A stretch of DNA of 64,000 nucleotides, taken from Candidatus Eiseniibacteriota bacterium. Its GTDB lineage: Bacteria > Eisenbacteria > RBG-16-71-46 > JABDJR01. Location of the stretch: positions 1,440,001-1,504,000 of the forward strand of contig CAWANH010000028.1 in NCBI GenBank assembly GCA_963783375.1, given 5' to 3'. The number at the start of each line of letters is the position of its first letter. Within the stretch, counting starts at the first letter, position 1. A program made the translations under genes and the position numbers. The notes under the pieces are model-generated. The model ran no database searches. It worked only from the letters and a program-made list of their open reading frames with translations, and was not told where the DNA came from. Of the stretch, positions 1,700 through 13,950 are shown piece by piece.

Positions 1700-1951
1700 T
1701 CAGTCGTCCTCGTTCTCGAAATTGAGTTCGATATCCTCCGGTTGCAACCTGGGCAACGACCGATCAGGGAACGTCTCGCGTGCCCAGTTCTCGGCGTAGC
1801 GCACAGCCACGGCACGAATCACGGCCCGCCCCGGGAGCCCCGTGTGCTCCACGATCCGGGCGAGACGGCGCTCCGAGGGACCTTTCAGACTGAAGTACAG
1901 ATCCGCCAACTCCCTACCGGTGAACGTCTTCGAGGCGTCGATCGGTAACAT
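1700..1951 (-). CDS. Small RHH/CopG-like protein, paralogue of the N-domain of 1305-1694
   Basis: ATG 1951 after GGGGG. FSLKGPSERRLARIVEHTGLPGRAVIRAV has a strand-helix-G-helix pattern; acidic tail. Confidence 0.55.
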   Translation of the reverse strand: MLPIDASKTFTGRELADLYFSLKGPSERRLARIVEHTGLPGRAVIRAVAVRYAENWARETFPDRSLPRLQPEDIELNFENEDD

Positions 1952-2046
1952 CGTACCCCCAGTCGTTGATCGCCCACCCCACCTCTCTGAAAACGACTGG
2001 GGAGACACGATTCGGAAAGAGACGTGTGGGCAGGTACAGAGAGTGT

Positions 2047-2871
2047 CTAGCGAGGAGCAGCGAGAACCGCTTCAAACCCGGATGGGGTCCGGTAGGTCAC
2101 GGCGAGGAAGGTCCGCCCGGACGTTTCGCTGCCGACGGGCGTTCGAATCTGGAACCGGTCGCCCTCGGCTGGCAGTTCGCCCCAGGAAAGCGTTAACGCT
2201 GGCAACCTGAGGATCGCCAGCCGACAGTCCGAGGCCTCAGGAGGGATGGATGCCTGATAGGTGCCGCCTCCCTCGGTCCGGAACGAGACCGTGCGTCCGC
2301 CCTGGGTGGTAGCGGGCGGGACCGGCTCCCCCTCGACGACGATTCCCCCCTCAGTCCATCGGAGTCTCTGGCGGAAGGCCAAGAGAGCGGCTTCTCGGAA
2401 GTCTTGAGGTGGTCGTGTCTGGGTCGCCTTGGACCCACGAACCGCGTCCACTTGGAACTGCTCACCGTAGTAGGGCGTATCCGCCACGAAACTAAGGGCT
2501 TCCCCGGATGGGTGCCGGACGCCACGAGCCAGGCCAATGGCGACGGCCAGCACGGCCGCCAGGCCCATCAGGAGTTGGATCGTCCGGGAGGGCCTGCGCT
2601 TGCGCCGCCGTTTGGGCACCACGGGGCGCGGCAGGGTCTGGAACTTCAGGGTGCCGCGCGCGATGGCGGCCAGGCCGACAAGCTCCTCCCGGAGCTCTCC
2701 GGATTGCGCGAGGAGCTGTGTGATGCGCTCCCGGTCCTCGGGAGTTACCGTTCCGTCAAGATAGTCCTCCAAGAGCTCGAGATCCACCTCCTCCGGGGAC
2801 GACCGGAGGGCGAGGGATCGGAGGGCCGCTGAGAGTTCGGTGTCCGTCATGTGCTTCGCTTCACGCGCCAT
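2047..2871 (-). CDS. Membrane-anchored anti-sigma factor (zf-HC2-like N-domain lacking the Zn ligands, one TM, extracytoplasmic domain)
   Basis: ELLEDYLDGTVTPEDRERITQLL anti-sigma motif; basic stretch, then TM LLMGLAAVLAVAIGLA; directly downstream of an ECF sigma. Confidence 0.75.
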   Translation of the reverse strand: MAREAKHMTDTELSAALRSLALRSSPEEVDLELLEDYLDGTVTPEDRERITQLLAQSGELREELVGLAAIARGTLKFQTLPRPVVPKRRRKRRPSRTIQLLMGLAAVLAVAIGLARGVRHPSGEALSFVADTPYYGEQFQVDAVRGSKATQTRPPQDFREAALLAFRQRLRWTEGGIVVEGEPVPPATTQGGRTVSFRTEGGGTYQASIPPEASDCRLAILRLPALTLSWGELPAEGDRFQIRTPVGSETSGRTFLAVTYRTPSGFEAVLAAPR

Positions 2872-2883
2872 CGGTCATACCCT

Positions 2884-3525
2884 CTACCGTCCGAGTTCCA
2901 CGGAGATCCCCGTCCGCTCCAGTTGCTCGGTGAGCTTCCTCCGGCAATAGCGAACCTGGTCCGAGAGCTTCTTGTTCTCACTTGGCCCGGCTCCCAGGAG
3001 AATCTGAAGCTCTTGGGGTGTGTAGCCCTCGGCCGCGGCCTTGAGGAGGAGCTGACACTGTGGCGAGAGATGCTCCAAGGCCACCTCGACCTGCCGGAGG
3101 AGCTCCGCGAGTTCGGCTTGAACCTCGGGATCTGGCTCGGAGCTCTCAAGGGCCTCCAAGAGCTCACTTAGATCTTCGTGCCGGCGGTGCTGCTCGTATT
3201 TCATGCAATCCCGCGTGCGATTGCGAAGCACCGTCCAAAACCAGGAGGCGAAGGCCCGCCCCTTGTTTTCGTAGCTCCGCAACCGCCGGAAGTCATCCTC
3301 TCGAAGATCGAACAGAAGTTTTTGAAAGAGGTCAGCTTGATCCTCTTCGGACAGAGAACGAAAGATGGCTGGAGGTCGGAGCTGAACCAGCCGCCACGCA
3401 TAGACATAAAGCTCTTCCCACGCCTTCTCGGGATTGGCGTCGAGCCAGTCCATGAAGGACGGCCAAGGATCAGCGAGGATGGAAAAGGCGACAGGGTCCG
3501 TCCGGCCTGTCTCGACCTGAGACAT
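2884..3525 (-). CDS. ECF-family RNA polymerase sigma factor
   Basis: Region 2 (AWEELY...DLFQKLL...FASWFWTVLRNRTRD) and region 4 (ALEHLSPQCQLLL...EGYTPQEL...CRRKL). Start trimmed to ATG 3525. Confidence 0.85.
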   Translation of the reverse strand: MSQVETGRTDPVAFSILADPWPSFMDWLDANPEKAWEELYVYAWRLVQLRPPAIFRSLSEEDQADLFQKLLFDLREDDFRRLRSYENKGRAFASWFWTVLRNRTRDCMKYEQHRRHEDLSELLEALESSEPDPEVQAELAELLRQVEVALEHLSPQCQLLLKAAAEGYTPQELQILLGAGPSENKKLSDQVRYCRRKLTEQLERTGISVELGR

Positions 3526-3607
3526 GCGCCAGACTGTAGTGACACTCGGCACCTCACTGCAATGCACAATGCTGAGCCTCGCCTGTTTCCCCCATCGAGA
3601 TAACGTT

Positions 3608-4627
3608 TCAGGCGGCGGATTTCGGAATAGAAACCGCCAAATGTGCTGCTTTGAGAGAGTTCCAGGGGCAGCCCAAGTCCTCCGCCTGCCCCGTGGCCAC
3701 CCCCTGTAGCCACGGGGCCAATCTACCGGGATCGAGGACAAGGGTTCCGTCGGGGTTGATCCGGCCGACCCGGTTCCGGGAGTCGGTAAGGGCGACCGTG
3801 CACTTGTTGAGGTCTCCGTTCGCCCGGATGACCCAGGATGTGGCCATGGCCGCGTAGCAGATTGGAGGCGGTGGTGGGGCGGCATAGAGCCCAAGTTCCT
3901 CTGCTCTGTGCCGCAAGACCGCGATCGTCTCGTGCCCGTTGTGCCCGTCTAGTACGGGCAAGATCGGATCGTTCACTCCCCCGAGTCGCTCCAACGGCCG
4001 GATGAAAAAGGAGAACCGTGCGTCGTGCGCGAACGCCTGGGCACACTCCGTGAGGAGCTCTGGCAAGCGTTCGGCATTGGCCCGGGTGACATGGATCCGG
4101 ACGATCACAGAGAAGGGCAAGCGCTGGTCCTTTAGCGCGACGAGGCTCTCCCAGACTTGGGCGAACGTCCCCCTGCCGTTGGGGCGCTTCCTCACCGCAT
4201 CATGGTCGGGCTCAACCCCATCGAGGGTGATCTGGTAGTGCATGACACCGAGCCGAATGAGCTCCTCGGCGGTTCCGGGGGAGAGAAGGTCGCCGTTTGT
4301 GGTCATGTCCGAATCGACTTGGACCGCGGGATGCCGAGTGCGCAAATCTTGGACGTGGGCCATGATCTCACGCACGACGTCAAGGGCGACGAGCGGTTCC
4401 CCACCGAACCAGGACAGATCGAGCCGGCAGAGGTCGGGCACGCGAACATCGAGCAACCGTTTGATCCCCTGCACCACGGGCGGAGGCATGCGGGACAGCC
4501 GGAAGTCCTCGTAGCAGTAGTGGCAGCGGAAGTTACAGCGCTCGGTCGAAAAGAGGACGAGATGGAGCCGTCGGGACGAGAGGGCCTTCCCGTACCCCGA
4601 AGCTCCGCTCTGCTTGGTGGGTCTCAC
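3608..4627 (-). CDS. Radical SAM enzyme with Twitch/SPASM-like C-terminus (putative peptide maturase)
   Basis: CNFRCHYC motif, WFGGEP, MTTNG, QITLDG; C-terminal Cys in ICYAA, NKCTVAL and GCPW. GTG 4627 lies 8 nt after the peptide stop. Confidence 0.9.
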   Translation of the reverse strand: MRPTKQSGASGYGKALSSRRLHLVLFSTERCNFRCHYCYEDFRLSRMPPPVVQGIKRLLDVRVPDLCRLDLSWFGGEPLVALDVVREIMAHVQDLRTRHPAVQVDSDMTTNGDLLSPGTAEELIRLGVMHYQITLDGVEPDHDAVRKRPNGRGTFAQVWESLVALKDQRLPFSVIVRIHVTRANAERLPELLTECAQAFAHDARFSFFIRPLERLGGVNDPILPVLDGHNGHETIAVLRHRAEELGLYAAPPPPPICYAAMATSWVIRANGDLNKCTVALTDSRNRVGRINPDGTLVLDPGRLAPWLQGVATGQAEDLGCPWNSLKAAHLAVSIPKSAA

Positions 4628-4635
4628 TTGGCGCG

Positions 4636-4839
4636 TCAGCACTTGTAGTTCGGAAGGATCGGCGGCCAGTCGTCTCCGTTGGGCTCCTGTAACGATGTGG
4701 TAAGCGTGGACACCACGCGGCCATGCGCGTCGAATTGGAGTTCGTGGCGGACAGGCATCTGGGCGTGCGCGGGCCGAGTTCCGAGGAGAAGGGTGACAAG
4801 CATGGCGCCTTGGAGCGTATACGTCGCAGATCGTTCCAC
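4636..4839 (-). CDS. 67-aa secreted peptide, candidate RiPP precursor
   Basis: GGAGG RBS 6 nt before GTG. Hydrophobic core AMLVTLLLG and AHA signal peptidase site; C-terminus EPNGDDWPPILPNYKC. Fills the CHAT-rSAM gap. Confidence 0.7.
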   Translation of the reverse strand: MERSATYTLQGAMLVTLLLGTRPAHAQMPVRHELQFDAHGRVVSTLTTSLQEPNGDDWPPILPNYKC

Positions 4840-4884
4840 AGCAGACCTCCGGTCGAAACGGACACCGCCCCACGGCGGAGGTCG

Positions 4885-7857
4885 CTAGTCTCCGACCGCG
4901 AGGAAACAGGCCCAGTAGTAGGGATGAGTTGGTCTACCCGTAGAACGCCTGATCTGGAGAGTTTCGGACGAGGTATAGAAAGCCGCAACACTTGCCGAGC
5001 CGTCACGGTCCAGGAAGTGATCGTAGAAGCGCAGGCACCAGTCCCGACTCGGGTGATCTCCGATGTCCCAGATGGAAAGGATCGCGCTGTGTGCACCGGC
5101 GAGACGGAACGCGCGGTAAAGGCCAGCCACGCGCTCGCCCGGGAGCGCCGTTCCCTCGGATGACCGACAGCTAGAGAGGAAGACCAGCTCGACCGAGGAG
5201 AAGTCCTCCAAGGCGATCTCCCGTTCGCCCCAGACTCCGTCAAAGCCGCTCGAGTCAGCTAGCGGCCTGACTAGTCGCAAGCCGGCGCACGGCTCTCCGG
5301 TGAGCGGATCGGTCCAGTCGACGCCGTGGGCCGCAAGGTGCACAACGCGGGAGCCCGGGATGCGGCGAGGAAGGACACTCTCCCGCGCGGACGTCCCGGT
5401 GAGCAATGTCACTGGTTCACCCGGTCGGCGCTTCTTCCAAAGGGTAACGACTTGCTCCGCCTCATCGAGCGAGGCGGGGAGCTCAGCCGGGGCTCCTGAC
5501 CCCCATGCGGAGTAGTCAACACCACCGACGGCCAGAAGCCCCTTCCCGGTGGCCTCGCTCGCGGGCGAGATGAGCTCCCGCTCGCTCTCGGCGAGCCGGA
5601 AGCTTCCGAGCTCTTCCACGAGGTACGAGGTACGACCACGGGGGAGGGCAAGGACATTCACGTTCCACAGCGGCCCCGTCGGGATCAGCACGAGATCTTT
5701 GGGGAGGTTGCCGCCGAAGATGGGGTCCAACAACAGGTGGCGGAGGGCGGCGCCGAGGGATCGGTACGCCGCTTCTGCCCCGTCGGGGTCCAAGATGAGT
5801 TCCTCGGGGGCTTGCTCCATGAGGGTCTGTTGGCTGGTGACGAGGGTGTCAATCCGGCTGGCGGCCCCCAGATCCTGGAAGCGGACGTCCTTCTCAGGCT
5901 CCATGAGAAAGGCTCCGTAGTGAGGGGCGTTGCCTTTGCCGTACTGGACGTAGGCGATGAGCGTTGTCTCCGGGGGGAGCCCTTTGCGGAGGGCCTGAGT
6001 ATCCAGGGTCGGACGAGTTGGGGTGATCGGCCGGGAGGCAGCCAAGCGTTCTTCGAACCGCGCGATTTCGCCGTCCAGCCGCTGAAGCAACTTGGGAGAG
6101 ACGGGTGCGAGGCCCTCGACCGGGTCCATGGTGAGCAGGTTGGCCAGGTGCCGCTTGAGAGTACGGAGCGTGTCCGGTTCCGCTCCTAGCTCTCGTCGGC
6201 GCGTGAGTTCGTCGAGAAGTGAGCCGCGCGAGCCGATGGCGAGCGTCCATGCCGCCTCGACGAAGCGACTTCCCTTGCATGCGTCGTCGCTCAGGAGAGA
6301 GAGGAGGAGATCCAGGGAGGAGACCTCCTCCTTCCAGTAGGCGCTGATCTGCTCGGAAGTCATCGCCTGGAGGTTGAGCTGGTACCGATGGAGAGAGGCG
6401 GAGGCGGCATCATAGGCGAGCTCCCAGGCCGCGCGCGGATGACCTTGGGCGGAGCGAAGCTCACCCGCGGTTTCGTCCACTTTGGACCGAACGATGTGGT
6501 CCCGTGGTAGGGCCTTGACGGAGCTCAGAGCCTGAGCCGCCCAGCGCTCAGCCTCGGGCAGCCGGCCCCGGGCGGATAGGAACCGCACGTAGTCGGCGGC
6601 CAGGGAGCCAAACAAGGCCGGCTCTTTGGAGGGGTCCGCGTTCGCAAGACCCTTCTGGAAGAGCGAATCGGCACGGTTGGTACGACCGAGGCGCACGTCC
6701 AAGCGTGCGAGACGGGCCAGGGTGGGAACGGTCAAGGGGGAGTTGGCTCCGTAGATTCCCGTGAAGTATTTGAGGCTCGCCCGCAGCGTGTCGACCCCAG
6801 CCTGAAAGTGACCCTCCCTCTCCAGGATGTATGCCTGGATGGAGTAGTTCCGATTTCTCGTGCGCTCATCGGCGCCGTAGCGCTTGGCCACCTGCCGAAA
6901 CCGCTCCTCGAGCCGTTTGGTACCCGGGAGGTCTCCCAGGCGGCTTGTGATCTCTGCCGCCGTGACCGTTGTCCCCGCCGCGAGGGCCTTCTCGAGGTCC
7001 GGATGCCGCTCGATCGTCTCACTCACCTCGGTGATGACTTTGAGGGCGTCCCGGAAGTCTCCCTCCGCGGCGAGGCAAACGGCATATCCCCATCCGGTCT
7101 GGCAGAACAAGTGCGGCAAGCGGTTGCGGCGTGCCTCATAGGCCTGACGATAGAGATCCTCTGCCTCCGGCAAGCGACCCATTCCATGGAGGATCACGGC
7201 ATAGTCGTTACTCGTCCAGGCGAGATCGAGATCTTGCGGGGAAAGGACACGCTTCCTCACCTCGTAGACATGGGCGATGTGCTGGAGAGCCTCGGCGCGT
7301 CGCTTGAAGTGATCCAGGGTCTGTGCAAGCCCATGCTCGGCCCACAGGGTCTCGCGGTCGTCCGGTCCCAGGGTCTTGACGAGGATCTGCCAGGATTTGA
7401 GGAAGTCCCGATGGGCGGCTTCGAAGTTCCCAGTTGACAGATTCCAGCGAGCGTACCGCTCCAGGGTTATGTCGTAGCCGGCGGAGGAGTCGCCGGCGAC
7501 CGCGGCCCAGTCCGTCAGGGCGCGAGAGAGGTACTTGCCGGCCTCCTCAGTGCTGTCACCCCGGGCCAGGGCCCAGCCGTAGTCTCGGTGGAAGCGGGCG
7601 GAGAGGGAATCGGGTGGGCCCGAGGAGTCTAAACACCCGAGAAGCCGAGTGTAGGCAATGAGCGCCTCGGGGAAACGGCGGTTGGCGAGCAGGCTGTCCG
7701 CCACCGTAAGTTCTTGACGTATAACGGATTTGCTGCATGGCCACGACACCTCCTGGCAGAGACCGGGTACAGAGGTGATGCAGGGGGACAGGGCCAAGGC
7801 CACCACGGCGATGCAGCGGGCTGGCCACGTGGCTGGAGAGGCTGTTTTGGGGTTCAC
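4885..7857 (-). CDS. Exported TPR-CHAT (caspase/separase-like) protease
   Basis: N-terminal signal-like sequence and many TPR-like helical repeats; CHAT motifs LVLIPTGPL, VVHLAAHG (His), LVFLSSCRS (Cys), HPYYWACF. Confidence 0.9.
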   Translation of the reverse strand: MNPKTASPATWPARCIAVVALALSPCITSVPGLCQEVSWPCSKSVIRQELTVADSLLANRRFPEALIAYTRLLGCLDSSGPPDSLSARFHRDYGWALARGDSTEEAGKYLSRALTDWAAVAGDSSAGYDITLERYARWNLSTGNFEAAHRDFLKSWQILVKTLGPDDRETLWAEHGLAQTLDHFKRRAEALQHIAHVYEVRKRVLSPQDLDLAWTSNDYAVILHGMGRLPEAEDLYRQAYEARRNRLPHLFCQTGWGYAVCLAAEGDFRDALKVITEVSETIERHPDLEKALAAGTTVTAAEITSRLGDLPGTKRLEERFRQVAKRYGADERTRNRNYSIQAYILEREGHFQAGVDTLRASLKYFTGIYGANSPLTVPTLARLARLDVRLGRTNRADSLFQKGLANADPSKEPALFGSLAADYVRFLSARGRLPEAERWAAQALSSVKALPRDHIVRSKVDETAGELRSAQGHPRAAWELAYDAASASLHRYQLNLQAMTSEQISAYWKEEVSSLDLLLSLLSDDACKGSRFVEAAWTLAIGSRGSLLDELTRRRELGAEPDTLRTLKRHLANLLTMDPVEGLAPVSPKLLQRLDGEIARFEERLAASRPITPTRPTLDTQALRKGLPPETTLIAYVQYGKGNAPHYGAFLMEPEKDVRFQDLGAASRIDTLVTSQQTLMEQAPEELILDPDGAEAAYRSLGAALRHLLLDPIFGGNLPKDLVLIPTGPLWNVNVLALPRGRTSYLVEELGSFRLAESERELISPASEATGKGLLAVGGVDYSAWGSGAPAELPASLDEAEQVVTLWKKRRPGEPVTLLTGTSARESVLPRRIPGSRVVHLAAHGVDWTDPLTGEPCAGLRLVRPLADSSGFDGVWGEREIALEDFSSVELVFLSSCRSSEGTALPGERVAGLYRAFRLAGAHSAILSIWDIGDHPSRDWCLRFYDHFLDRDGSASVAAFYTSSETLQIRRSTGRPTHPYYWACFLAVGD

Positions 7858-8466
7858 AGGATCCGGTTGTGAAAAGATTCCGAAAATGGTCCCTCTCAGT
7901 CGTTACAAAAGAGGTGGGCCGGTCCAGCTCGGTAGTCACTCGCCGAGCGGTGGGGCCACGGCCCAGAGAGGATATCACGTGGTGCCGGCCCCCAGTCGAT
8001 GGTGGAGAAACGGGGGAAACTAGGCTTCTTCACGACCGTGGGGGAAGTTCTAGGTTTCTTCACTGCGGGGGCTGGCGCCATCTCCCGCAATCGGATCCTG
8101 CCCGGGAAATGGAAGCGGCTCTGTGACGCGTCGAGGGGGGAGTCATTGCCTAAGGAAGGCCAGAAGAGCGTGGCAAGCAAAGGGGTCAGGCCGGAGTACG
8201 GCACCCGATCAACGGGCGAACCCGAAAACACCCGGGTGCTAACAAATCCCGTGCGGCGCATGACCATAGGGAGCCCGCTCTTGATCGTTACTCGGACGGG
8301 CTCCTAGGTCAGAGAAGGACGCCAAGCCCCCTATTCGGCCACTTCTCTGGGGGCATGTAACTCCGCCAGTCTACTGCCAGCGGAACAGCAGGCGCAGTTG
8401 CGAACACGGACAGTTTGGAGACTTGAGTCCCGAGGCTTACCCTCGCACTCGCGCCCCAGAGAATAC

Positions 8467-8507: not shown

Positions 8508-8584
<77 letters not shown>

Positions 8585-8733
8585 ACCTTCAAACTCTTGG
8601 TGGGCAAAAGAGAGTACTCAATCGCCCGGGGGGCGTCAAGCCCCATCCGGATCCGGACCACGCCCCGGCAAGCTCCACCGGCCCACCGGCATCCGGCCGC
8701 TCGCCGGAGCGCTTCACCCCGGCCCCGATTCGG

Positions 8734-9210
8734 CTAGGGGGCCTCGGGCGGCGGCGCGTCCCCCGGCAGGGGAGCGTCGGCCCCGCCCGCCGGGTCCCCG
8801 TCCCCGCCGGCGTCCCCCTCCACCTTCCCGGAAGCCGACACGTCCGGGGCCACCCCGTCGTCCTGAAAGCGGTAGATGATCTCGTCGGGGCCGATCATCC
8901 AGTACTTCTCGCGCGCCACCTTCTCCAGGCTGAAGGGGTCGTCCTCCTTGAGCTTCACCTCCTGGACCAGGCGCTCCTGCTCCAGGCGCATGCGGACGTT
9001 CTCCGCGGTCACCTGCTGGAGTTCCTTCCGGAGCTGGATACGGCGGACGATGCCGCGGTCGCCGCCCACGAAGTTGGCGACGTAGACGGCCAGGGCGAGC
9101 GCCACCAGCGCCCAGCGAAAACGCCGGGACGAGGCGAGCCCTTTCCCCTGATATACCGTGCGCAGGTAGCGGTAACGGATCGGCTCGATCCGTTTACGAT
9201 GCGGAACCAA
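8734..9210 (-). CDS. ftsB: Septum formation initiator (FtsB/DivIC family)
   Basis: TM, then GDRG, coiled coil and LEKVAREKYWMIGPDEIIY. Follows eno. TTG 9210 with AGGAGG RBS. Confidence 0.85.
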   Translation of the reverse strand: MVPHRKRIEPIRYRYLRTVYQGKGLASSRRFRWALVALALAVYVANFVGGDRGIVRRIQLRKELQQVTAENVRMRLEQERLVQEVKLKEDDPFSLEKVAREKYWMIGPDEIIYRFQDDGVAPDVSASGKVEGDAGGDGDPAGGADAPLPGDAPPPEAP

Positions 9211-9316
9211 CCGGGTGCCCTCCTGAGTTGGTCCAACCAAACTGAATGCGGTGGAAGGCACTATAGGCCCGACGGAACCCGGAATCAAGCGGCGGCGCGA
9301 AAACCCCCGCCGAGCT

Positions 9317-11002
<1,686 letters not shown>

Positions 11003-11060
11003 CTAGTTTGGCCCGCGGTCCGCGGACGGCGGGGGGGAGCCCCCGAACCCGCCTCGTTCC

Positions 11061-11087
11061 TGCAACCCGGCCGGCCTGGAGTCCGTA
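11061..11087 (+). promoter_or_regulatory. ECF (SigW-type) promoter, probably autoregulatory
   Basis: TGCAAC-N17-CGTA about 30 nt upstream of the sigma gene; resembles the B. subtilis SigW consensus TGAAAC-N16-CGTA. Confidence 0.6.
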
Positions 11088-11116
11088 AATCCAGGCGAGA
11101 GCGGAGGACGCGCGAG

Positions 11117-11713
11117 TTGACGCCCGAGGTGAACGAAGATCGGGAGCTGGTCCTCCGGTGCCTGAAGAACGATCAGGCCGCCTTCGAGCGGCTCCTGGAG
11201 AAATACCGGCGTCCGGTCTACGGGATCGTCCGCCGGATGGTCCGTACCGACGAAGACGCCCAGGACCTGGCCCAGGAAGCGTTCATTCGGGCATTCAAGA
11301 ACCTGAAGCAGTTCGACCCGGACCGGAGGTTTTCGAGTTGGCTCTTTCGTATCGCCAACAACCTGTGCATCGATCACTATCGGCGGCGGAAGCTCAGCAC
11401 GGTGCCGATGGTGCGATCGCCGGACGGGGAGAGCGAGGAGACGTGGGAGTTCCCCGACGACTCGCCCGACCCCGCGGAAGCCTTTTCGGATCGCGAGCGG
11501 AGCCGGCGGCTTCTGGCCGCGGTGGAATCGCTGCCCCCGACCTACCGGGCGGTGATCCTGCTCCGCCATCAACAGGGTCTGGCCTACGAGGAGATCGCGG
11601 AGACCCTCGACGCTCCGCTGGGCACGATCAAGGCCCGTATCCATCGGGCCCACCGGTTGCTCAAGGAGAAGCTCGTGCGACAGGGACTGGACTGGCTCCC
11701 CGAGGAGCACTGA
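11117..11713 (+). CDS. ECF sigma factor, SigW-like
   Basis: DAQDLAQEAFIRAF, FSSWLFRIANNLCIDHYRRR, YEEIAETLDAPLGTIKARIHRA. TTG with GGAGG. Confidence 0.92.
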   Translation: MTPEVNEDRELVLRCLKNDQAAFERLLEKYRRPVYGIVRRMVRTDEDAQDLAQEAFIRAFKNLKQFDPDRRFSSWLFRIANNLCIDHYRRRKLSTVPMVRSPDGESEETWEFPDDSPDPAEAFSDRERSRRLLAAVESLPPTYRAVILLRHQQGLAYEEIAETLDAPLGTIKARIHRAHRLLKEKLVRQGLDWLPEEH

Positions 11714-11720
11714 GGCGGTC

Positions 11721-12356
11721 ATGAACCACGACATCCACGAAACCCATCTTCCGCCCCGGATCCTGGAGCGGTACGTGGACGGCGATCTCGCCGCCGGGCC
11801 GCTGGCCCGGGCGGAGTCGCACCTGGCCGCCTGCGCCGCCTGCCGCCGGGAGACCGGCCGCTTCCGCGCCCTCTTCGCCGATCTCGACCGCCTTCCCATC
11901 CCCGAGCCGCCGCTCGGTTTCGACGTCCGCATCCTGAACGCGGTGATCCGGCGTCCCAGCGAGGAGGCCATCCTCCTCCGCCTGGCCGGCCGGGCCTACG
12001 CGGTGCTCGCCGCCGTTCTCTTCGCCCTGGCCGCGGGCATCTTCCTGGTCGAGGGCCCCGCTCCCTTCGAGAACGCCTTCGCTTCCGCGGTGGCCAGCGG
12101 AGTCAACCGCGGGATCGAGGCCGTCCGGTTCATCGGGGTGAGCTTCCTCGATCTCATGAAAACCGCGCTCCATCTCATCACCCTGGCCGACGCGGCCGGC
12201 GCCCTCGGCCGCGGCCTCGAAGCCGCCGCCACCTCGCTGGCCCCCCAGGTGGTTCTTCTCACGGTGCTGACCCTGTCCCTGGCGACCCTGGTCCTGGTCT
12301 GGGCCCTGTCGCCCGCCCGCGAAAGGGGTGTTCCCCATGTCTCCCTCTCTCTCTAG
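11721..12356 (+). CDS. zf-HC2 anti-sigma factor (RsiW-like)
   Basis: HLAACAAC (HxxxCxxC) plus TM segments; downstream of the sigma gene. Confidence 0.88.
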   Translation: MNHDIHETHLPPRILERYVDGDLAAGPLARAESHLAACAACRRETGRFRALFADLDRLPIPEPPLGFDVRILNAVIRRPSEEAILLRLAGRAYAVLAAVLFALAAGIFLVEGPAPFENAFASAVASGVNRGIEAVRFIGVSFLDLMKTALHLITLADAAGALGRGLEAAATSLAPQVVLLTVLTLSLATLVLVWALSPARERGVPHVSLSL

Positions 12357-13950
12357 GCTCCACCGGATCCGCGCGGCCCGGGCGCTTCTCATCGGAGGCG
12401 CGCTCCTGATCGCTCCGATCTGGGTATTGGGGGCGGCCGCCCAGGGCACCTCGGGGACCGGTGCGGACAGCGCCGAGGCCTCGGCGCCCAAGCACGAGGG
12501 CACCCTCAAGCGGATCCAGTTCCAGGTCGACACCGGCGACTCCTCGCCCACCCGCATCAACATCGACCTGAACCAGGGACGGGTCACCAAGGCCGCCGAC
12601 TACGTCCGGTTCGGCGAGAGCATCCACGTGAAGCCGGACGAGCACATCGCCGGCGACGTGGTCTCGATCGGCGGGAACGTCACCGTCGAGGGAGCGGTGA
12701 GCGGCGATTGCGTGGCGGTGGGGGGGCGGATCGAGATGACCCCCGGGGCCACCGTGGCCGGGAACGTGGTCTCGGTGGGGGGGAGCGTCACCCTCGACGA
12801 CTCCACCGAAGTGGGCGAGGACGCGGTGAGCGTGTGGGGGAGCCTCGACGTGGCCCCCACCGCCAAGGTCCACGGGGAGCAGGTGGAGGTGAGCGGCCTG
12901 GGGCTGAACTTCCCCTTCGCCGCCATGACGGGAGCGGGGCAGCACGGGTTCGGCCACGACGTCTGGCGGTTCCTCCGTCGGCTCATCTGGGTGCTGGTCC
13001 TGGTCGGGCTCGGCCTTCTGGCCTTCCAGATCTTTCCCGGCCGCATGCGCCGGCTCTCGGATACCGCGGGGGAGCGCGGTCTGGTCGCGTTCCTGGCCGG
13101 CTTCGCCGGGTGGATCCTCTGGCTTCCCGCTTTCCTGATTCTCTGCGTCACCATCATCGGGATCCCGGTGGCCATCCTGCTCCTATTCCTCACCCCGCTG
13201 GTCACCCTGCTTGGCTACATCGCGGTGGCCGAATCGGCGGGACGCCGGATCTCGCACCGCTTCGGAGGCGCGGTCCCGGGCTCGGCCAAGGCGGTCTTCC
13301 TGGGGGTGCTGGGGCTGGAGGGGGCGCTCCTGGTGGCCCGGCTCCTGGCGGTTTTCGGCTCCATCTTCAGCTTCATCGGCTGGATCCTGGCCATGGTCGG
13401 CTACTGCGTGATCTTCATCGCGTTGACCATGGGTTTCGGGGCGTTCCTGATGAGCCGCTTCCGCGCGCCGGCCACCGAACCGCTGAACGCGATCCCGCCG
13501 CCCGCGTCTCCGCCGCCGGAGGGGCCGGGCGCGCCGCTGGTTTCTCCCACGCCGCCGACCCCTCCCGTCGCGCCGGCTTCGCCGCCGCCGCCACCCGGGC
13601 CCTCGGCTCATTCCGCGCCGCCTTCCTCGCCGGGGGCGGGGACCCGTCCCCCGGACCCGCGCCCGGTGGACCCCCAGAAGGCCCAGGCCCTCCTGGAGGA
13701 ACTCCTCCAGCTGGACCGGGAGTTCGCCGCCCAGGAAGGGAAGTTCATGGTGGCGGCCCAGCCCGCGCGGCAGGCCATGGCCCATGCGCGGATCGCGTCG
13801 GAGGGCTTCAGCCGGAGCGGCAGCTTCCGAGCCGACGACATGGGCCTCTTGGAGTCGGCGAGGAACATGCTCCGCTCCGGGCAGTCGGTCATCATGCTGG
13901 CCGATCCCGAGGACCCGAGGTACTTCGTCCTCTGGAAGCGGATGTCGTGA
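12328..13950 (+). CDS. Bactofilin-like (polymer-forming) beta-helix membrane protein with Pro-rich linker
   Basis: Repeats GDVVSIGGNVTVEGAVSGDCVAVGG, several TMs, Pro-rich tract. Confidence 0.75.
   Translation: MFPMSPSLSRLHRIRAARALLIGGALLIAPIWVLGAAAQGTSGTGADSAEASAPKHEGTLKRIQFQVDTGDSSPTRINIDLNQGRVTKAADYVRFGESIHVKPDEHIAGDVVSIGGNVTVEGAVSGDCVAVGGRIEMTPGATVAGNVVSVGGSVTLDDSTEVGEDAVSVWGSLDVAPTAKVHGEQVEVSGLGLNFPFAAMTGAGQHGFGHDVWRFLRRLIWVLVLVGLGLLAFQIFPGRMRRLSDTAGERGLVAFLAGFAGWILWLPAFLILCVTIIGIPVAILLLFLTPLVTLLGYIAVAESAGRRISHRFGGAVPGSAKAVFLGVLGLEGALLVARLLAVFGSIFSFIGWILAMVGYCVIFIALTMGFGAFLMSRFRAPATEPLNAIPPPASPPPEGPGAPLVSPTPPTPPVAPASPPPPPGPSAHSAPPSSPGAGTRPPDPRPVDPQKAQALLEELLQLDREFAAQEGKFMVAAQPARQAMAHARIASEGFSRSGSFRADDMGLLESARNMLRSGQSVIMLADPEDPRYFVLWKRMS

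Follow-up and report, generated by a model that had tools for sequence, protein, structure and literature searches.

A TPR-CHAT protease, a sigma/anti-sigma pair and a radical SAM peptide pair in one cassette of a Candidatus Eiseniibacteriota bacterium: a possible split DdvA-like switch with an optional peptide damper

In a 64,000-nucleotide stretch of a Candidatus Eiseniibacteriota genome (contig CAWANH010000028.1, positions 1,440,001 to 1,504,000 of the forward strand; hereafter the window), we analysed a five-gene cassette at 2047..7857 that codes for a tetratricopeptide repeat (TPR)-CHAT caspase-like protease, a small peptide, a radical S-adenosylmethionine (SAM) enzyme, a sigma factor of extracytoplasmic function (ECF) and an anti-sigma factor. 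We tentatively read it as a split form of the DdvA switch of Myxococcus xanthus, joined by an optional peptide module that may damp the protease. An initial annotation, made from the sequence alone, had the peptide gate the protease from upstream; this part of its proposal probably does not hold, as a promoter-like motif of the kind typical for this group of sigma factors precedes the peptide and its enzyme, which look like output that may feed back.

Organization and conservation of the cassette

All five minus-strand open reading frames (ORFs) of the initial annotation are present, coding and in the same direction. They are the protease (4885..7857, 990 amino acids; Pfam CHAT, catalytic dyad and predicted signal peptide), the precursor of a peptide that is ribosomally synthesized and undergoes post-translational modification (RiPP; 4636..4839, 67 amino acids; homologue, leader and core motifs), the radical SAM maturase (3608..4627, or from an alternative start at 4642, 339-344 amino acids; PF04055), the ECF sigma factor (2884..3525, ~213 amino acids; TIGR02937) and a single-pass anti-sigma factor (2047..2871, 274 amino acids; anti-sigma-like N-terminus and one transmembrane segment). 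Two details of the annotated packing need qualifying: the enzyme gene has two candidate starts, 4627, which lies 8 nt past the peptide stop, and 4642, which is the one in the database and overlaps that stop; and 82 nt containing a promoter-like site separate the enzyme from the sigma gene.

The annotation had proposed that conservation of the gene order be examined, and the order, whose absence would have been the main ground for refuting the proposal, is conserved in 6 of the 26 CHAT loci (window included); three close homologues (P0002, P0123 and P0130), each on an 8,176-bp contig, probably represent one further copy. A sigma factor and a Ser/Thr kinase take the place of sigma and anti-sigma in five of the 26, one more has a kinase match only, and the remaining loci have no such regulator within the locus DNA examined. 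A script places the precursor directly behind CHAT in 23 of 26 loci, the exceptions being L026, where a variant precursor was found by eye, L050, with an atypical ORF only, and L029, with its precursor elsewhere. In five loci the enzyme gene has moved in front of CHAT and the precursor is still behind CHAT, and many CHAT-precursor-radical SAM loci lack a sigma gene nearby.

Searching 206 genomes of the class with the enzyme gave 19 matches in 17 genomes, 18 of them adjoining a CHAT gene. Among 93 non-redundant genome loci of the enzyme family, 20 have CHAT, as do 6 of 80 metagenome loci, two of which are identical. The metagenome loci were gathered with the radical SAM alignment, the sigma alignment being too divergent; duplicate loci (L024, L025, L027, L034 and L162) were excluded from the counts, and repeat proteins P0138-P0141 were unused. 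On a quick tree of the enzymes, the CHAT label needs 3 changes compared with 21.6 in shuffles, and 22 of 24 CHAT rows fall in one clade with a modest support of 81.

These counts bear on the simplest alternative, that a signalling module and a RiPP pair came to lie together by chance in a tRNA-adjacent island. The lower GC content of the region, its tRNA-Met border, the insertion-sequence and AbiE genes nearby and the different gene that a congener carries at the same site would fit such an origin. The same five-gene order, however, recurs in a metagenome and across four families (23-50% protein identity), and this, with the enzyme-CHAT link in 18 of the 19 class matches, largely refutes chance, which we regard as very improbable.

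A promoter-like motif probably places the peptide downstream of the sigma factor

A 22-nt inverted repeat flanks the cassette. Transposon ends or an invertible segment were considered and rejected; its arms are copies of the motif TCCGAA-N15/16-CGTT, of which two more lie inside the cassette. The motif was traced from this repeat, and the copies before the precursor and the sigma gene were then found where the model predicted them. On the minus strand, an N15 copy at 4944..4968 lies inside the 3' end of the CHAT gene, 105 nt before the precursor start, and recurs at the same place in the congener G001; another at 3602..3626 lies 77 nt before the sigma start; and a third at 1992..2016 lies past the anti-sigma gene, 41 nt before an 83-amino-acid ORF. 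The fourth copy, with N16, is on the plus strand at 7879..7904, just upstream of CHAT and pointing away from it, with the same place and direction in G001. Scored by a matrix whose 16 training sites come from other genomes (G001's homologous ones among them), the sites before the sigma gene, upstream of CHAT and before the 83-amino-acid ORF rank 1, 2 and 3 genome-wide, respectively, and the precursor site ranks 10.

Exact copies number four in the cassette compared with 0.017 expected per 6.6 kb, and zero in the other 55 kb of the window. The loci of sigma orthologues have 16 over 205 kb; other CHAT loci have 1 over 251 kb, and loci lacking CHAT have 4 over 1,567 kb. The copy preceding the sigma gene is also found in G001 and G008, with a near-match in G005, and likely reflects autoregulation; scans for sigma-70 promoters and terminators remained at chance level. 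We consider it highly probable that TCCGAA-N15/16-CGTT is the promoter of the cassette sigma factor, by which the precursor, enzyme, sigma and anti-sigma genes are probably driven. Because motif sites precede the peptide and the sigma gene, the peptide is probably an output of the sigma factor and not an independent trigger, and because the site upstream of CHAT points away in both the window and G001, the protease gene is probably not driven by it. At L127 (G013), two sigma genes of the cassette group flank one CHAT gene, with back-to-back motif copies at ~15,490.

Could the peptide then be output only? On that account the CHAT/anti-sigma/sigma system senses envelope stress and the peptide acts elsewhere, in metal binding, envelope protection or as an antimicrobial, never on the protease. 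Beyond the site before the precursor, it draws on other motif sites that precede predicted envelope proteins in related loci, on the majority of the enzyme family being without CHAT, and on the bufferins, Sec-exported RiPPs in an ECF regulon, under SigF (PMC11626156). It fits less well with the precursor remaining behind CHAT through rearrangements, with the many CHAT-precursor-radical SAM loci that have no sigma gene, and with the CHAT-linked enzymes forming one clade. We hold it to be a rather doubtful account of the cassette.

The protease and a candidate cut site in its partners

As annotated, the protease has an intact dyad. Pfam CHAT (PF12770) matches residues 701-990, C-terminal to the TPRs (E 3.7e-32; 112.4 bits against a cut-off of 24); the dyad is His844/Cys897, and two alignments, of 27 and of 29 CHATs, show it intact in every row. 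Its N-terminal hydrophobic stretch is shared by most full-length CHATs of the aligned set, and a 67%-identical homologue begins at the same position, so far as signal peptides can be judged from hydropathy and conservation; export of the protease to the periplasm is likely. Its proteolytic activity is putative, and its specificity for Arg is predicted from the motifs of its partners.

The window sigma factor scores 51.7 bits on TIGR02937 (cut-off 42.9) and belongs to a narrow group, with 15 matches in 13 of the 206 class genomes. Its annotated transmembrane anti-sigma partner does have one transmembrane helix (~98-114), but the zf-HC2 and anti-sigma profile matches are weak and below cut-off, and no His/Cys zinc ligands occur in the N-terminal domain of 12 aligned rows. 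The periplasmic part is modelled as a beta-sandwich with a conserved flexible V-R145-G loop, the sole internal segment of the model with a predicted local distance difference test (pLDDT) score under 50. Fold searches with this model returned weak FnIII/Ig-like matches only (best Z 3.8), with no Foldseek match at E 0.001, and gave it no family assignment.

The loop coincides with a family motif, F-x4-[LMV]-R-[GS], ~30 residues past the membrane helix, in which Arg is present in 15 of 18 rows. The kinases that replace the anti-sigma factor carry L-R-G-I-G or a variant (L-R-[GSR]) in their periplasmic tails in all five examined. An R-G-x-G loop also follows the catalytic His in 11 of 29 CHATs and in none of the 10 anti-sigma-type CHATs; the window protease likewise lacks the R-G-I-G loop of its kinase-partnered relatives. 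In one example, L029, protease loop and kinase tail drift together (RGIHLR in CHAT, RSIQLR in the kinase). The exposed L/V-R-G motif common to the anti-sigma factors and the unrelated kinases is a candidate cut site with Arg at P1, Arg145 in the window. Separase cuts after Arg (PMC11506125). The annotated cleavage of the anti-sigma factor by CHAT thus gains support from a conserved candidate site, and we judge such a cut, followed by site-2 proteolysis, to be fairly probable.

The same motif bears on a further alternative, that CHAT is a RiPP maturation protease which removes the leader outside the cell, the sigma pair merely controlling the operon. Exported leader peptidases are common in RiPP clusters, and both the fixed CHAT-precursor adjacency and the sigma-less CHAT-precursor-radical SAM loci accord with this role. 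The precursors, however, have no conserved R-G/R-S before the core (8 of 27 have one past the hairpin, and the window peptide has none), whereas the transducers carry it, and CHAT travels with sigma modules that lack any RiPP; leader removal by CHAT is accordingly quite improbable.

The source genome (G000) has three other CHAT genes (L130 on C29; L128 and L129 on C28), and L130 reads sigma-kinase(LRGIGG)-CHAT and then a subtilase, with no radical SAM gene.

The peptide and its enzyme

Since the 67-amino-acid ORF is preceded by GGAGG, has codon-position GC of 0.66/0.47/0.72 like the neighbouring genes, and has a 54%-identical homologue with the same start and the same C-terminal LPNYKC, we take it to be a real gene. 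The peptide comprises a predicted Sec signal (residues 1-26), a shortened hairpin leader, ELQFDAHGRVV, and a C-terminal core, Asn64-Tyr-Lys-Cys67. Small ORFs beside enzymes of the family share this plan, in which two short strands and a helix form the leader and the core is N-x-x-C, sometimes D-x-x-C. A leader hidden Markov model (HMM) has matches in 41 of 86 loci (its seed sequences included), and N-x-x-C is present in 38 of 45 matches, compared with 191 of 4294 background ORFs. In 23 CHAT-linked precursors the Cys is invariant and the Asn at least 90% conserved. Most CHAT-linked precursors end with the Cys or with at most a few residues after it. The NYKC of the window peptide is identical in an unrelated family member, L044. 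None of 14 family precursors exceeded a cut-off in NCBIfam, and an Atlas search with a precursor returned no usable match. The window peptide thus appears, by sequence, to be a true member of the large unnamed precursor family of its enzyme, and its annotation as substrate of the adjacent radical SAM protein gains support.

The enzyme matches PF04055 (E 2.8e-17) and has CxxxCxxC and a short Twitch-like tail with three invariant Cys. CxxxCxxC together with a CX9-15GX4C auxiliary motif (SPASM/Twitch) is found in 90 of 98 family rows, the window protein included. All 35 enzymes compared have three auxiliary Cys, and 31 have no more than three; this would leave one iron site open, like that to which the thiol of the substrate is proposed to bind in NxxcB (PMC9389541). 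The enzyme model (pLDDT 88.7) begins its core at about residue 25 and contains no N-terminal RiPP recognition element (RRE). Its top folds are ChlB, CteB, anSME and SkfB at template modelling scores of ~0.6, and CteB is the best PDB sequence match. Against NCBIfam, the best 25 of 67 matches are all below cut-off (best score 113 against 525), and the family, with 2171 homologues at E 1e-20, is unnamed.

That the enzyme modifies the peptide is very likely. The streptococcal radical SAM RiPP enzyme NxxcB joins a Cys sulfur to an Asn beta-carbon using its auxiliary cluster (PMC9389541), and from this analogy and the Asn-x-x-Cys core the product is somewhat more probably than otherwise an Asn64-Cys67 thioether ring.

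Several family members depart from the plain arrangement. The hairpin-helix leader unit is doubled inside single precursors of L033, L052, L068, L043, L152 and L153, and L166, L210 and L186, among other loci, have tandem precursor arrays. Archaeal members (L035, L067, L078 and L098, from Marsarchaeota, Thermoplasmata and Pyrobaculum) have short hairpin-leader precursors and adjoin the CHAT-linked clade in the quick tree. The congener enzyme gene in G001 (L014, 10226-11292) is frameshifted at a run of seven G, for which an assembly error or slippage is possible.

Export was annotated for both peptide and protease. Predicted signals are present in both, as judged by hydropathy and conservation, but only a minority of CHAT-linked precursors have one: 19 of 27 show no visible export signal, which any model must explain, and it is present in three of the six five-gene cassettes. 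Precursor signals were judged by eye from hydropathy and twin-arginine patterns, and that of the window peptide by hand. Twin-arginine (Tat) signal peptides occur on family precursors of L152 (10117-10614), L153 (3689-4096) and L160 (4645-5037), and also L173 and L194, suggesting export of a folded, modified small protein.

Were the peptide exported, it could be an activating autoinducer that is made under the sigma factor, accumulates outside, binds the TPR groove and turns the protease on in positive feedback, which corresponds to the activating option of the initial annotation. The synteny and promoter data are equally consistent with this scheme, Cys lies at or near the C-terminus of most CHAT-linked precursors, Sec and Tat signals arose in several of them, and the trigger of DdvA is not known (PMC11506125). 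The TPR part of the window CHAT, furthermore, has peptide-binding kinesin-light-chain TPRs as its top PDB sequence matches among those listed. Against an autoinducer stand the 19 precursors with no visible signal, orthologous switches that lack the peptide, and the absence of a transporter among the neighbours scanned. We think this scheme unlikely.

The window peptide also contains DDWP (4655-4680), a Trp-acidic motif present in the homologue P0137 as well. Kinesin light chains bind Trp-acidic motifs, and we speculate about a docking site on the CHAT TPRs.

A possible split switch with a peptide damper

We tentatively prefer, as possible though short of probable, the reading that the cassette is a DdvA-like switch in split form, to which the peptide is added as an optional damper. 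An envelope cue would activate the exported TPR-CHAT protease, which would cut the membrane brake formed by the anti-sigma factor at Arg145, and site-2 proteolysis would then free the sigma factor to transcribe the precursor, the enzyme, itself and the 83-amino-acid regulator. The enzyme would close the peptide ring, probably as the Asn64-Cys67 thioether, and the ring-closed peptide would be exported and damp CHAT. The primary input of the protease need not be the peptide.

Whether the peptide acts directly on CHAT we regard as evenly balanced; if it does, inhibition is the reasonably probable sign. We favour inhibition because the module is optional and because most precursors have no export signal, an autoinducer having to be exported and an inhibitor not; PCi, a small inhibitor of a bacterial caspase, has been described (10.1101/2023.06.23.546230). 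It is possible, if a little on the doubtful side, that the ring-closed peptide is a dedicated ligand of the caspase-like protease, acting in feedback via the released sigma factor, with the same unit used on two transducers through the R-G site.

A number of observations weigh against the damped switch. Of the loci of the enzyme family, 73 of 93 in genomes and 74 of 80 in metagenomes lack CHAT, so the peptide family has functions independent of it. Of 15 sigma-orthologue matches, five have CHAT and the RiPP pair, five CHAT only and five neither nearby (the four genomes behind the last group have 4-22 CHAT matches elsewhere); the source genome's own sigma-kinase-CHAT locus, L130, has no radical SAM gene, and CHAT genes are common in the phylum, at 3-22 matches in each of five genomes checked. 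As some sigma/CHAT modules lack the RiPP pair and CHAT genes are common, the switch appears to run without the peptide, the RiPP pair being an optional module on a common switch. The annotated peptide-protease-sigma circuit is therefore upheld in its conserved order but not as an obligatory unit, with five of the 15 sigma matches having CHAT and neither enzyme nor precursor.

The definition of the motif is post hoc, taken from G001 and two sites of the window. Genome-wide the motif is not in excess (15 copies, 12.4 expected); L020, L022 and L188 lack an exact copy, and in L122 the motif points in the wrong direction, into the CHAT 3' end. At the candidate cut site, Lys replaces Arg in the anti-sigma factor of L022, a five-gene cassette; Csx29-type CHATs (craspases) have Met or Leu rather than Arg before the cut, and that DdvA is cleaved by its own CHAT is itself an unproven hypothesis (PMC11506125). 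In the window peptide the hairpin is present but the leader helix has been lost, and the peptide has a weak score on the leader HMM (E 0.24). Export signals are found on just 8 of 27 CHAT-linked precursors (five Sec or lipoprotein-like, the window's included, and three Tat) while the proteases look exported, and Sec reportedly handles macrocycles poorly (PMC11626156).

Relation to known systems

Among the nearest known systems is DdvA/DdvS of M. xanthus, a periplasmic TPR-CHAT/anti-sigma/ECF module in fused form that is independent of a CRISPR complex (PMC11506125). The two share an ECF sigma factor, a single-pass anti-sigma factor, a periplasmic TPR-CHAT with a His-Cys dyad, an autoregulated sigma gene and a proposed site-1 cut in a flexible linker; the cassette has the ECF sigma factor, the co-encoded transmembrane anti-sigma factor and, judging from its motif, its own promoter. 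They differ in that protease and anti-sigma are fused in DdvA and separate genes in the cassette, that the DdvA anti-sigma domain is a zinc-binding CHCC type whereas that of the cassette is zinc-less with its own beta-sandwich, and that the cassette has no adjacent CBASS/CRISPR island and has an inserted precursor/radical SAM pair (PMC11506125). PDB sequence searches gave no match to a DdvA structure, one of them among its best 60 of 264 matches.

In the Csx29/Csx30/CASP-sigma system of type III-E CRISPR, a TPR-CHAT likewise cuts a separate anti-sigma factor in a flexible loop and relieves an ECF sigma factor (PMC10028731). Csx29, however, is cytoplasmic, RNA-activated through Cas7-11 and specific for Met/Leu (PMC10028731), whereas the cassette has no Cas protein and is predicted to have periplasmic topology and Arg specificity. 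The window sigma factor scores 18.9 bits on the CASP-sigma family NF041236 (cut-off 100), and PADLOC, run on seven proteins, gave generic viperin radical SAM matches only and none to Cas7-11 or CRISPR. ECF54 sigma factors occur in a CHAT/subtilase context, described as without an anti-sigma factor (PMC8999054), which the cassette has.

On the RiPP side, the NxxcA/NxxcB, PapB and CteB ranthisynthase systems also place a radical SAM enzyme with an auxiliary cluster beside an N-x-x-C (some D-x-x-C) precursor, and NxxcB lies in an Rgg/SHP operon, whereas the cassette has no Rgg gene (PMC9389541). Compared with NxxcB, the cassette enzyme is ~340 amino acids with no N-terminal RRE, three auxiliary Cys and another, hairpin type of leader. 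NxxcB reportedly has an RRE and a full SPASM domain. Bufferins likewise have precursors with a Sec signal, are modified in the cytoplasm and belong to the regulon of an ECF sigma/anti-sigma pair, but rely on the chemistry of multinuclear nonheme iron oxidases (MNIOs), form thiooxazoles, bind copper and have no CHAT protease (PMC11626156).

The cassette fails the defining tests of each of these precedents except generic CHAT and SPASM/Twitch membership. The initial annotation did not recognise the circuit as described: the fused DdvA/DdvS module is known (PMC11506125), but no paper that links CHAT or caspase-like proteases to radical SAM RiPPs came up in a literature search that covered few subscription journals and no supplements. 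The paper listings consulted contain nothing on the enzyme family, and it is not mentioned in the passages of PMC10288494 that were consulted, whose supplements could list it.

Genomic setting and neighbouring genes

The cassette lies in a variable region of lower GC content (63-64% compared with 69%) bordered by a tRNA-Met gene (8508..8584, minus strand), the only match of an Rfam scan. AbiE and insertion-sequence genes lie farther along the same region. L131, just left of the window, has a type IV toxin-antitoxin pair, AbiEi/AbiEii, together with an rve transposase (8546-10086 and 12221-13186) in this variable region. In congener G002 the flanking DNA is 93% identical and an AcrB-family gene occupies the cassette site, and G001 has a complete cassette ~10 kb from the same tRNA gene, so the cassette seems to be a mobile or readily lost unit. 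Soil-metagenome contigs match the window letter for letter across the peptide/enzyme and CHAT/peptide junctions at low depth, although the best run may be the source sample.

Past the anti-sigma gene, and outside the initially annotated interval, the 83-amino-acid ORF (1700..1951, minus strand) is a likely sigma target; it has no Pfam match, and a ribbon-helix-helix/CopG-like DNA-binding protein is a lead to its identity. Beyond it lie a 179-amino-acid ORF with a weak helix-turn-helix match (1155-1694) and a short minus-strand ORF with no Pfam match (877-1248), which resembles an IS1380-type transposase fragment. On the other side, 7905-8460, read from the divergent promoter-like site, contains a doubtful 102-amino-acid ORF (7999-8307) with a repeated segment; it may be a remnant or a non-coding transcript. 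At 10994-12356 lies another, unrelated ECF sigma factor with a zinc-finger-type anti-sigma factor and then a membrane protein, a group that looks ordinary.

Implications

What triggers periplasmic TPR-CHAT proteases, and where they cut, has yet to be settled, and according to the authors of the DdvA study their model of autoproteolysis can be validated only once the signal has been identified (PMC11506125). In one 6-kb, heterologously expressible unit the cassette combines a separate candidate substrate that has a predicted cut site with a candidate ligand and, for use in a reporter, a predicted promoter, so both questions become directly testable. While its parts have precedents, what is new here is the anti-sigma variant, the R-G site common to the transducers, and the promoter-like motif that probably places the peptide downstream of the sigma factor. 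The cassette is also an entry to a large unnamed radical SAM family with a hairpin leader and no RRE. Should the peptide indeed regulate the protease, RiPPs would have a new role in signalling, and the peptide would be a natural, macrocyclic modulator of a clan-CD protease.

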